IMG/VR virus record: IMGVR_UViG_2703718860_000003
Coordinates: 1 to 7,640 of that record
Length of the DNA stretch: 7,640 bases
Source: a virus
Lineage: Duplodnaviria > Heunggongvirae > Uroviricota > Caudoviricetes
Reading direction: 5' to 3' (one strand)
Made by a program: the position numbers
Part shown: in pieces, positions 1 to 3,000 of the stretch
How positions within the stretch are numbered: the first letter of the stretch is position 1
Layout: each line of letters starts with the position of its first letter

Positions 1-3000
1 GAGCCGGAAGCTGCATCCGTAGCGGAAACCGATGGTAAAGCCTTTCCTCAGCCAGCAGGTGTTGCGTTACCAGTCCAGGAAACGACGACACAGGAAGAAA
101 TGAAAACAGAAATCGTGGAAGACATTGTGAAGTTACAGCCATCGGTCACCGAAACGAAAGCAGATGACCTGATTCTACCATCGCTGCATGTGGCTAACCG
201 CGAGCTGCGCCGGGCAAAAGGTCAGGTTCAGAAGTGGGAGCGAGTCTGTGCCGCTCTGCGGGAGCTGAACAAGTGCCGGGATATTCTCCGGGATATTACC
301 GCCACCAGAGAGCAGCAGTGAGTGGCTGGAAGAAGTGGTGCCGGGCTGAAATCCTGATACTCCGTCAGTGTGCGGGAACTATGAAGGTGAAAAGCATTGG
401 CGCACTTATCGGACGAACTGAAGCGGCAGTGAGAACGAAGGCACGGGAGCTGGGCATCAGTATGATGTTACGTGGTGATTTTCACCAGTCAGCAAAATAT
501 TCTCAGCGTGATATTGAGCTGGCGCGGCAACTGCATCAGAGAGGCATGCAAAGAAGGGAAATTGCCAGAAAATTAGGCATGCCGCTGCGCATAGTGAATA
601 ACTACGTTTATTTCGACAGGAGGGTTCAGGCGTGAGGGTGAGAATTTATATCGCCGGTCCGATGACGGGATATGAAAATTTCAACCGTGAGGCGTTTCAC
701 AAGGCGGAAGAAGCACTGAAACAGGAAGGGCATACCGTATTAAATCCCGCAGTACTTCCGGACGGGCTGACTCAGCCACATTACATGGATATTTGCATGG
801 CGATGATTCGTTGTGTGGATGCGGTTTACATGCTGAAAGGCTGGCAGCGGTCGGCAGGCGCTAAGGCAGAACTGGCACTGGCGGAGAAACTGGGACATGC
901 GGTTATTTTCCAGGAGGCAACCAGTGAGCGAAATTAATTACCAGGAACTACGGCAGGTGAAAGAGAAAGTATAATCCAGAACTGAATAATTAAAATCAGC
1001 ACTGTAAATAAAAATTAATCCTTAACCGGAGGGATTTCTGCACCCTCAGAACATCAGGAGACCGCCTGAAAGGGCGGTAATGAAAAATGACTGAATTAAC
1101 CAAAGAGCAATTAATCAAAGAAGCCAAATTAAAAATAGCGGTTGCAAAATGTTACCCTAATTCAGAGATGGCCTGGGTAGAGGGCGAGCTATTCAAAATT
1201 GCACTGGCATCGCTGGAAGCGGTTCCGGTGGCATGGCTGCATTCAGACAATGGCCTGGGTATTCCAGCAATAACCAGGAGTAAAAACGTTGCTGATAGTT
1301 GGTTATCAAAGGGCTGGTATGTTCAGCCGTTATATGTAGCCCAACCAGTACCGGTGGTGCCGGATGCTCGTCCATCTTTAAATAATGGCATTGTCGGATT
1401 TGATGAAGGCTGGAATGCCTGCCGGGATGCCATGCTTAATGGAGATAAATCATGATTAATCGTATCAAGCTGGAGCACATCCTCGAATATGCCAGGCAGC
1501 AGAAATGTATTGGGCAACTTTGTAAAATTCCACCAGGGGATATGGTTGAGATCATGGAAATAGCTATGCGTCAGGCTGGCAACTTTCAGGTAATTCCTGA
1601 TGACGGTCGCGAACAGTTCGAAGCGCTTATCAGGTTCTATGCGGATGATAAAAACCATGCAACATTGTTGCTTCGTGCTAACGAAGGGATGAATTACCGG
1701 GATCCAAATGTGGATTTGGCGTGGATATTCTGGAAATCCAGTCGAGAGCACATATTGCCTGGAAAAAGCGACAATAATCCAGCATCAGGCGATCAGGTAA
1801 GTGAATTAACAATGTGGGTGAAGCGGTTATCTCATTCCTTAAAAAGCGTTAATAAATCAAGCAAACTACCGGATAAAGCGATGGACTACCTGAAGCGAAA
1901 CGGACTGATAAGCGCGGAGGATATTTTACGATGACCTGGCCTGAGGCATTCGTGGCGGTAGGAATTGCAATGGCGGTGGCGCTGGTGGTGTATTCGATTT
2001 GCCGCTGGGGATGATAAGTGGAATAGTGCGGGGTATTGTGCGCCCCGCTGATTTGATTATTTATTTGGGGAGATAATGTCCTGAAGCGTGGCGATTACTT
2101 CTTCGTCTGTATCTGTATTTCGGAGTTGATATGTAATATCTTCGTTTCTAATAATTTGCATTACAAGCCATTCTCCATTTTTTTCACGTAAGTGAACAGT
2201 ACTGTTTTCCGATATACCATGAACGGTCATTTTTATACCTTTTGTGTTGTGTGAGCGATCAATATAGTCAGAAATGAGACAAGTGAAAGGACATAGAAAA
2301 TAATAGTTTGTTTTTGTAGAATTGCTGCGGGTGCTTGAGGCTATCTGCCTCGGGCATGAACACCAACGGCAGATAGATAAAAGCCCCACCCGACTATAAA
2401 TCGAAGTGAGGCCCCTATATGCTCGTCACATATAGATTGCCTCTTACGGACCGAAAGGTCAAGGAGAAGCAGACTATGAAGCAGCAAAAGGCGATGTTAA
2501 TCGCCCTGATCGTCATCTGTTTAACCGTCATAGTGACGGCACTGGTAACGAGGAAAGACCTCTGCGAGGTACGAATCCGAACCGGCCAGACGGAGGTTGC
2601 TGTCTTCGTAGACTACGAATCTGAGAAGTAAGAGTGACCAGGCGAGGGAGAAATCCCTCGCCACCTCTGATGTGTCAGGCATCCTCAACGCACCCGCACT
2701 TACCCCGTTTCGGCAGACTTTGTTTTTTCCTGGCATTCTGGTTTACAATTCGCGCGTCAGCCTGAACAACTGGCACCTGCTGCGTCACCGGAGAACCCGA
2801 TGGCGCAACATATAAAATCCCACAATTCTGAAGTCGATCCGACCATTAAGCGGGGGCGGCGTTCACACGTATTTAAAACTGACTGGTACCAGCATGACCC
2901 ATGCACTGAAGAACAGGCCGAATGGCTGATCCAGTGTTACCGCAGGCGCGGATATGAGTTTGAGAAAGCCCTCAGCTTCGATCGTCGTCACTGGATAATC

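Follow-up and report, generated by a model that had tools for sequence, protein, structure and literature searches.

Does a reading frame of only 27 codons encode a protein and, if so, what could such a peptide do? The question is raised by positions 1931-2014 of a 7,640-nucleotide (nt) stretch of DNA, here called the window (positions 1 to 7,640 of IMG/VR virus record IMGVR_UViG_2703718860_000003, class Caudoviricetes). The window covers the part of a lambdoid Shiga-toxin prophage that runs from nin to stx2. The first-pass annotation had seen in this open reading frame (ORF) a hydrophobic peptide, either a small membrane modulator, a toxin-like peptide or a frame that is not translated. The comparative data strongly disfavour the last option and point to a conserved single-helix membrane peptide. 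Between modulator and toxin they do not discriminate, although the regulatory hallmarks of type I toxins are missing.

Judged from its many copies, the frame is almost certainly a genuine gene, which is conserved, constrained as a protein and mobile as a unit. That it is translated and selected as a protein is quite probable. That the peptide acts by binding a partner in the membrane is a tentative proposal. The explanation that we favour overall, with moderate confidence, joins a real gene to this mode of action.

Reading frame and translation signals

The ORF lies on the plus strand at 1931-2014 (ATG 1931-1933, stop TGA 2012-2014) and encodes MTWPEAFVAVGIAMAVALVVYSICRWG. Its ATG overlaps the preceding stop, as the first-pass annotation had described. 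The overlap consists of ATGA at 1931-1934, shared with the TGA of the upstream ORF (1452-1934), and this junction sequence would be a site of termination-reinitiation coupling. A Shine-Dalgarno (SD) sequence, GGAGG, is located at 1916-1920 of the plus strand, 10 nt 5' of the ATG and within the 3' end of the upstream gene. We sought an earlier ATG, GTG or TTG start for the frame and found none; the frame is open for just 19 codons upstream. On that ground, a programmed frameshift joining the upstream protein to the helix was rejected, and no slippery heptamer common to the different upstream contexts was seen on inspection.

The length alone is unremarkable, as 58 ORFs of at least 20 amino acids (aa) overlap the first 3.5 kilobases (kb) of the window. 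By itself, the 27-codon ORF is within chance. Its conservation elsewhere is, by comparison of copies, far beyond chance. The same ATGA (or GTGA) junction stands behind at least five unrelated upstream genes, with GGAGG or AGGAGG at the equivalent place in nearly all upstream contexts. In every context examined, the start overlaps the upstream stop, and the upstream coding sequence contains the SD. The final 5-6 upstream codons, with the SD (CAGGAGGTGAATCA-ATGA or GGAGGATRTTTTACG-ATGA), travel with the ORF.

Ribosomes ending at the upstream TGA could reinitiate at the overlapping AUG, aided by the GGAGG in the last upstream codons. Together, SD and ORF act like a mobile module, present behind unrelated genes (DUF551, EaA/Ea22-like, MazG-like, phrog_924). 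An RNA element within the ORF was considered and rejected. The region gave no signal of RNA structure (minimum free energy z of about -0.9 to +0.9 against shuffled sequences) and no Rfam match over 1931-2014. The only sok match in Rfam, at 2329-2478, belongs to hok.

Integrity and selection

The integrity of the frame was estimated with a scan of viral contigs anchored only on codons 20-26, which gave 145 evaluable copies. The frame is intact in 142 of them (98%), counting GTG starts, in-frame deletions and extensions. More precisely, 135 copies are intact with 27 aa, two start with GTG (MSWPEAF), three carry in-frame 6-nt deletions, and two have stop-loss extensions. The GTG-start copies still preserve the TGA of the upstream gene. 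Only three copies are disrupted, one by an amber codon at W3 and two by a 1-nt deletion. Likewise, the protein database holds forms that are longer in frame by 2, 4, 6 or 8 residues, and one duplication of +15. All the indel types are in frame except one kind. The identity of the stop switches between TAA and TGA, its position being fixed.

The conservation of the frame in related prophages, which the first-pass annotation had proposed to check, extends to distant copies. Relatives at 59-81% identity retain the 27 codons, the ATGA, the AGGAGG and the stop position. They include VT1-Sakai (MNWPEAFTAVGVAIAVAFILYSLFRWG), PhiR12_1 (MSWPDAIVTLGMVFAAAFVVYSICRWG), Av-05 (MTWPEAFTTVGVVMAVAFAVYSVCRWG) and a plasmid form (MSWPEAFATVGIVMAAALGLYSICRWW). 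These deep relatives present synonymous changes even in the YSICRW codons (TAT/TAC, TCG/TCA, TGC/TGT, CGC/CGA). In PhiR12_1, PhiR5_1 and Av-05, the ORF exactly fills a gap of 82-85 nt in an otherwise gap-free gene array. Under simulated random substitution at the observed divergence, an open membrane-grade frame survives in 4-18% of the trials per lineage.

Selection was analyzed in two ways. First, we counted each variant allele once and compared the classes with those expected from mutation alone. Over codons 8-27, the synonymous, nonsynonymous and stop alleles number 30, 34 and 0, with 18, 43 and 2.7 expected. For codons 2-19, where the 3'-anchored sample is unbiased, the values are 26, 31 and 1 against 16.4, 40 and 1.6 (P = 0.005). 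The other two plus-strand frames show no synonymous excess over either range. One minus-strand frame, which shares the third-codon positions, mirrors the pattern of the ORF, as expected. Second, we estimated the ratio of nonsynonymous to synonymous differences per site (pN/pS) among eight diverged members. The pooled value is 0.42 in the frame of the ORF, versus 0.88 and 1.37 in the other frames. The ratio is below 1 in 28 of 28 pairs, with synonymous differences (pS) of 0.3-0.7. We therefore read the block as protein-coding, because its frame, start, SD and stop are conserved and the synonymous excess is specific to that frame.

The same data bear on the possibility that the block is conserved DNA, either a recombination linker or a neighbouring regulatory element, in which the open frame is incidental. 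The case for translation is indeed wholly comparative. Moreover, the block stands at mosaic junctions, and in arrangements of the 933W type the hok promoter adjoins the 3' end of the block, with a -35-like TTGCGG 10 nt past the ORF stop. However, such an element would not explain why frame, start (including ATG to GTG), SD and stop position are kept at the synonymous divergence given above, nor indels that are nearly all in frame, nor a substitution pattern specific to one frame. About half of the copies also have no hok nearby. An untranslated block is, in our estimate, very unlikely.

A predicted membrane peptide

The single transmembrane helix predicted by the first-pass annotation was recovered. 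Residues 6-24 are the best 19-residue stretch, with -1.04 kcal/mol on the Hessa insertion scale. The peptide is the most hydrophobic of the 33 ORFs in the window that start with ATG and have 22-40 aa; the next has +1.28 on the same scale. Trp3 and Trp26, 23 residues apart, bracket a core rich in Ala, Val and Gly, with small-xxx-small faces at G11xxxA15 and A13xxxA17. The N-terminal interface consists of Trp-Pro-Glu, and the C-terminal end is an almost invariant Tyr-Ser-Ile-Cys-Arg-Trp-Gly. Conserved positions are M1, W3, P4, E/D5, A6, G11, A13, A15, A17, Y/F21, S22, I23, C24, R25 and W26. By prediction, the peptide is essentially one helix across the membrane, anchored by aromatic residues. 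A cytoplasmic C-terminus (N-out/C-in) is suggested by Arg25. The 933W copy has two Arg at this end.

The product is probably an early-expressed, single-pass microprotein of the inner membrane. It would be made in early lytic development and inserted with a probable N-out/C-in orientation. There it might pack, helix against helix, on a membrane protein of the host or the phage, instead of acting as a regulated toxin. On present comparisons, its sequence defines a new family within a known kind, the small phage and prophage membrane proteins overlooked by gene callers. If the peptide is made, the family joins a short list of phage-encoded integral-membrane microproteins.

Known small membrane proteins offer partial parallels. 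AcrZ, MgrB, MgtS, KdpF and CydX are like the peptide in size, single helix, small-xxx-small motifs and omission by gene callers. Unlike them, the peptide is phage-borne and has no conserved neighbouring gene for a membrane complex. Identity with KdpF (TIGR02115) was rejected, since the scores of 13.9-14.7 bits are below the cut-off of 26.85 and composition explains them. Kil, CIII, Orf63/Orf73 and Ea8.5 are, like the ORF, short non-essential accessory genes of early operons with a highly mosaic distribution. Nevertheless, those proteins are soluble or amphipathic and have about 47-93 aa, and the targets known or suspected for them are cytoplasmic, whereas the peptide is a predicted membrane helix of 27 aa.

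A further resemblance to be weighed is with the type I toxins (Hok/Gef, TisB, IbsC, DinQ, ShoB, Ldr). Like them, the peptide has fewer than 60 aa, one transmembrane helix and very short termini, and this size with a very hydrophobic single helix is typical of such toxins (PMC12648545). A helix of this type might oligomerise and depolarise or permeabilise the inner membrane, as Hok, TisB, Ibs, DinQ or a pinholin-like factor would, and so contribute to host shut-off or abortive infection. The peptide is found in prophages and beside hok/sok in about half of its copies (directly upstream in 75 of 145). A natural fusion with Hok bears the annotation of a Hok-family toxin, and selection against a harmful product could lie behind the recurrent nonsense and frameshift alleles. 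However, the gene lacks the regulation of these toxins. Its translation is coupled to that of an ordinary upstream gene, its SD is exposed, and it shows neither a promoter nor a structured leader of its own. No promoter-like site was found on the minus strand in or next to the ORF, and Rfam gave no described antisense RNA over 1931-2014. The peptide has no similarity to the toxin families in Pfam, NCBIfam and PADLOC. Up to six intact copies per genome are tolerated, and a mutational hotspot, presented below, accounts for the nonsense allele. We consider a toxin of this type unlikely.

The fusion with Hok is P0093, from Escherichia coli (E. coli). An in-frame deletion joins residues 1-15 of the peptide to the C-terminal part of Hok from residue ~24 (MTWPEAFTTVGIAMA|LVTRKDLCEVRSRTGQTEVAVFTAYESEE). 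Its cluster has five members. It looks like a helix swap between two neighbouring membrane peptides.

Distribution and mosaic contexts

A 75-nt query internal to the ORF found 2506 places in 1553 of 5426 complete E. coli genomes (~29%), with a maximum of six per genome; 157 of these places are on plasmids. The first-pass annotation had called the ORF unannotated. This holds for RefSeq entries from the Prokaryotic Genome Annotation Pipeline (PGAP), where 60 of 60 sampled places have no annotated feature, for ST130, and for the GenBank record of 933W. It does not hold for a few GenBank submissions, in which the product of 27 aa is entered as 'bacteriophage protein' or 'hypothetical protein' (for example, AOM45384.1).

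With tblastn, the peptide was found in 94 phage records, one of them the 103-kb Salmonella phage SJ46, and in 180 plasmids. The plasmids are non-mobilizable in 174 of the 180 cases, and the listed ones have mostly ~90-120 kb. They come from E. coli in 154 cases, from Salmonella in 25 and from Klebsiella in one. In a search of species-representative genomes, full intact copies were confined to E. coli and Shigella flexneri. Two more matches are on short, probably contaminant contigs of other taxa; that of Xanthomonas pisi is an intact ORF identical to the 933W variant, and the other is a frameshifted variant. Carriers in E. albertii, E. fergusonii and Salmonella turned up in the protein and plasmid searches. 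A named copy in strain K-12 was sought and rejected: its prophages Rac, Qin and DLP12 have no copy of the peptide, in a search that covered these three and left out e14 and other prophages.

We used window 1800-2100 as the query for a BLAST search of phages. Some matches reach into the 3' end of the gene that precedes the ORF in the window. Many others, such as 933W, VT2-Sakai, Stx2 II and Min27, consist of query positions 132-213 alone, that is, window 1931-2012. In these alignments homology is seen to stop at the ORF borders, leaving a conserved block of ~82 base pairs (bp) with variable flanks. In the window, the ORF comes after the DUF4406 and phrog_924 genes and before hok and DUF968. In 933W, the block is flanked by L0139 and sokW/hokW and belongs to the leftward operon. 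A DUF551 gene precedes it in strain 9000, and a gene for a MazG-like pyrophosphohydrolase in a 94-kb plasmid. In two phages assigned to Vequintavirinae, the preceding gene is annotated as EaA (19-1-2) or is a hypothetical gene without a name (Av-05). In VT1-Sakai and PhiR12/PhiR5, the ORF comes after Ea22-like genes, just upstream of xis-int. The ORF thus belongs to phage operons of the early (delayed-early) phase, namely the nin region for the window and the exo-xis side of pL for 933W. The neighbour genes are variable, and none encodes a membrane complex in the contexts examined.

The module is carried by lambdoid and Shiga-toxin (Stx) prophages, by non-mobilizable plasmids of ~90-120 kb and by some Vequintavirinae phages. 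If the peptide is made, its gene ranks among the most widespread of those left unannotated in E. coli mobile elements, often in multiple copies. The frame is carried by the reference Stx phages 933W, VT1-Sakai and VT2-Sakai, and the peptide could give a handle on early host manipulation by Shiga-toxin phages. Annotation pipelines could gain a small profile for the family.

Two side observations concern the relatives of the peptide in databases. The 27-aa peptide shares a 90% cluster with DUF551 proteins, and PGAP names some contig-edge fragments 'DUF551 domain-containing protein, partial'. The cluster placement may be related to this naming. A true fusion of DUF551 with the peptide was rejected, as the 121-aa members of the cluster do not have the peptide. 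The 'partial' entries are calls at contig edges that read the 3' end of the upstream gene in the frame of the small ORF.

The second concerns short hydrophobic ORFs that start with MTWPEAF in viral and metagenome contigs with a GC fraction of 0.56-0.71 (L199, L201/L040, L051, L013/L075, L202). Their contexts differ; that of L202 is a tight phage gene array. L199, P0094 and P0095 (46-50 aa) have MTWPEAFxxVGxAxAAL/xxVGLAFAAL like the E. coli peptide and are only possible homologues. After a first scan with several such peptides, a codon-restricted scan of the whole viral collection gave seven sites, which is about the chance level by our estimate. A wider family of 'MTWPEAF + helix' in high-GC phages was dropped as evidence.

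The 3' flank and the parallel with NinA

Past the ORF stop, the window has a hairpin (2028-2048) that the first-pass annotation had placed 14 nt from the end of the frame. The hairpin is real, and the spacing is 13 nt between the stop codon and the stem. It has 7 pairs, 6 of them G-C, and a 7-nt loop, and it is followed by the T-rich tail TGATTTGATT. The whole intrinsic-terminator-like element extends over 2028-2058 of the plus strand. It is the only terminator-like site on this strand in 1400-2700.

Among the 145 copies, the next element is the hok promoter and leader (AAACGGTTTGCGGG...TAGAAT) in 75, a GC hairpin with a T-rich tail in 60, and something else in 10. The hairpins belong to at least six unrelated sequence types, and in 56 of the 60 contexts the stem begins 6-17 nt past the stop. 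Arrays of the Av-05 and PhiR12 type have neither a terminator nor hok next, and the following gene starts 3-5 nt later. From these arrangements, the ORF is typically the last cistron before a terminator or a hok/sok cassette. It would be the last cistron in a chain of early accessory genes.

The position near a terminator has a precedent in lambda. Our scan of its early regions found a hydrophobic ORF of 26 codons, MTIYITELITGLLVIAGLFIWGRGKS (L211 13068-13148; lambda 40567-40647). It is tied to both neighbours by ATGA, its start overlapping the stop of ren and its stop the start of ninB, and the tR2 hairpin is inside it. This ORF is the NinA of Kroger & Hobom 1982, as cited by Li et al. (PMC4824070), who state that its initiation site 'is not weak'. 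NinA is unannotated in NC_001416. It is annotated in P22 ('ninA' with a terminator) and in Sf6, where gene 45 carries the descriptions 'similar to phage 21 NinA', 'bsq6; boundary sequence' and tR2. By tblastn, NinA is present in 413 phage records behind differing upstream genes.

NinA of lambda, P22, 21 and Sf6 and the present ORF share several features. Both have 26-27 codons and a hydrophobic product with a single helix. Both overlap by ATGA with a variable upstream gene, which for NinA is ren, P or a DnaB-like helicase. Both are linked to an intrinsic terminator, that of NinA being in the early right operon. Both are short conserved blocks at a mosaic junction, usually missed by automatic annotation. 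Likewise, the present ORF resembles the 'boundary sequences' of the Sf6 type in being a short conserved block with non-homologous modules on both sides.

However, the two peptides have no sequence similarity (~4 of 26 identical positions by eye), and three members of the present family found no homologue in lambda 27500-45000 by tblastn. NinA has the tR2 hairpin inside the ORF, so that its hydrophobic core is partly dictated by the terminator, whereas the present ORF is hairpin-free. Unlike NinA, the latter is followed by a terminator of varying sequence past the stop, or by hok/sok instead. NinA lies between the replication genes or ren and ninB; the present ORF is found elsewhere in nin, in exo-xis of 933W, in plasmids and in Vequintavirinae phages. 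On these comparisons, it is an analogue of NinA by architecture and not a member of its family.

The terminator itself may be affected by translation. Li et al. (PMC4824070) found that ribosomes repress tR2 almost completely if the stop codon precedes it by a few bp, with recovery as the distance grows. In that work, a distance-18 construct had an efficiency of ~0.8, and a distance-17 construct, of different sequence, ~0.12. A ribosome finishing the present ORF should weaken the adjacent terminator, because no more than 6-17 nt separate the stop from the stem. Whether transcription reads through into the nin genes downstream would then hinge on translation. By the NinA parallel, tiny coupled ORFs near terminators may set the transcription leak into nin, Q and stx during active translation.

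It follows to ask whether translation and the joint matter, and the peptide does not. In such a boundary ORF, ribosomes would reach the terminator or the hok promoter, tune read-through and shield the transcript from Rho, while ~100 bp would serve as a recombination joint for module swaps. The shared architecture of NinA in lambda, P22 and Sf6, with the 'boundary sequence' label of the last, fits this idea. So do the active NinA start and the repression of tR2 by a nearby stop (PMC4824070), the constant ORF between two variable flanks, the short distance from stop to stem, and the low synonymous variation of codons 20-23 among close copies. Against it stands the constraint at protein level, with a synonymous excess in this frame only. 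Hydrophobicity is retained at 59-67% identity, and YSICRW is retained through synonymous changes. A spacer would need no conserved helix, and the upstream gene could itself end beside the terminator. Finally, the Av-05 and PhiR12-type phages have no terminator or hok to be tuned. We judge this explanation improbable. Under the preferred reading, a peptide with a membrane partner, the weakening of the terminator would be a side effect of the position of the ORF.

A more speculative proposal, to which we give little weight, unites NinA and this family in a class of 'capping microproteins'. These would be membrane helices of 26-27 residues, welded by ATGA to interchangeable early modules and abutting terminators. 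Their ~84 bp might do three jobs: encode a membrane-active peptide, make terminator read-through dependent on translation, and offer a homologous joint for module exchange among lambdoid and Stx prophages, large non-mobilizable plasmids and Vequintavirinae phages.

Weighing the evidence for a translated membrane peptide

Several observations count against a translated peptide with a membrane partner. The first is the closest relative, ST130, which is 99.7% identical over 301 nt and whose single difference changes codon 3 from TGG to TAG. The selection is only moderate (pN/pS of ~0.4), and the sampled copies are phylogenetically non-independent. Codons 20-23 (GTG TAT TCG ATT; 1991-2002) have near-zero synonymous variation among ~70 distinct close E. 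coli copies. No gene is consistently adjacent as a partner across the contexts. The net charge of the two termini of the peptide is nearly balanced; the orientation is therefore something that we infer. Pfam, NCBIfam, PHROG, PADLOC and PDB gave sub-threshold composition matches and no match to the peptide, and thus no functional lead. The peptide string was not found in the full-text literature searched. It was also not found in the supplements of two ribosome-profiling papers on enterohaemorrhagic E. coli and a preprint on the Enterobacteriaceae microproteome (PMC5597208, PMC11188072, PMC4765031). Finally, small-protein screens in K-12 do not cover the peptide, because Rac, Qin and DLP12 have no copy of it.

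The low variation at codons 20-23 is local. The neighbouring codons vary freely, and distant relatives change codons 20-23 synonymously. Homogenisation by recombination at the joint, or an extra constraint at DNA level, are possible causes.

The ST130 amber literally disrupts the frame in a close homologue, which is what the first-pass annotation had named as a refutation. The same TGG to TAG change at W3 occurs again in an unrelated viral contig, L157. The very divergent copy of POCJ13 reads MT*PEAFAIVVAAISIALIVFAICRWG, its frame otherwise open and with the usual end. Codons 2-3 (ACC TGG) contain CCTGG, a Dcm site at 1935-1939 of the plus strand, and TAG is thus found there in three backgrounds. 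Deamination of 5-methylcytosine on the bottom strand of CCTGG gives TGG to TAG, and on the top strand ACC to ACT. Synonymous ACC to ACT variants at codon 2 were also observed. Dcm sites were reportedly recognized by Coulondre and colleagues, in 1978, as hotspots of deamination and amber mutation. Since codons 2-3 form a Dcm site, the recurrent W3 amber can be seen as a hotspot product in decaying prophages, and not as contrary to the gene. Given the hotspot, the independent recurrence and the intact frame in 98% of the copies, the ST130 amber does not refute the gene.

Gene neighbourhood in the window

The gene order of the window is DUF4406, two genes with only PHROG matches, hok/sok, DUF968, rusA, a Q-like antiterminator (DUF1133) and a methylase-like ORF. 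Three tRNAs come next, and then the start of an ORF like the Shiga-toxin A subunit.

The upstream gene of the 27-codon ORF (1452-1934, plus strand) has 160 codons and matches phrog_924/phrog_24004. It is a hypothetical protein in the ST130 annotation. Mosaicism is also seen within this gene. As a comparison with P0098 (a Shigella DUF551 protein of 121 aa) shows, its product resembles a DUF551 protein family at the N-terminus, over ~45 residues (MINRIKLEHILEYARQQKCIGQLCKIPPGDMVEI...), but has a different C-terminal domain (phrog_924).

Compared with 933W, the window has ~240-270 bp extra between the small ORF and the hok promoter. Within the segment inserted between hairpin and hok, a convergent ORF of 57 aa (MTVHGISENSTVHLREKNGEWLVMQIIRNEDITYQLRNTDTDEEVIATLQDIISPNK) is encoded on the minus strand at 2057-2233. 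It is a hypothetical protein in the ST130 annotation, with no match in Pfam or PHROG and only a faint one to PADLOC PDC-M49B (E = 0.026). The complete hok/sok-type locus follows at 2329-2631 of the plus strand, where Rfam sok (RF01794) scores 104.6 bits at 2329-2478. It includes the Hok ORF at 2476-2631 (MKQQKAMLIALIVICLTVIVTALVTRKDLCEVRIRTGQTEVAVFVDYESEK) and a mok-like ORF at 2419-2631, both on the plus strand.

The three tRNA genes (6728-6976, plus strand) are directly upstream of the toxin-like ORF. The latter begins with MKCILLKWILCLLLGFSSVSYS, occupies 7071-7640 of the plus strand, and is presumably the Shiga toxin 2 A subunit. We take the order of Q, methylase, tRNA and stx2 in the window to be the usual layout.

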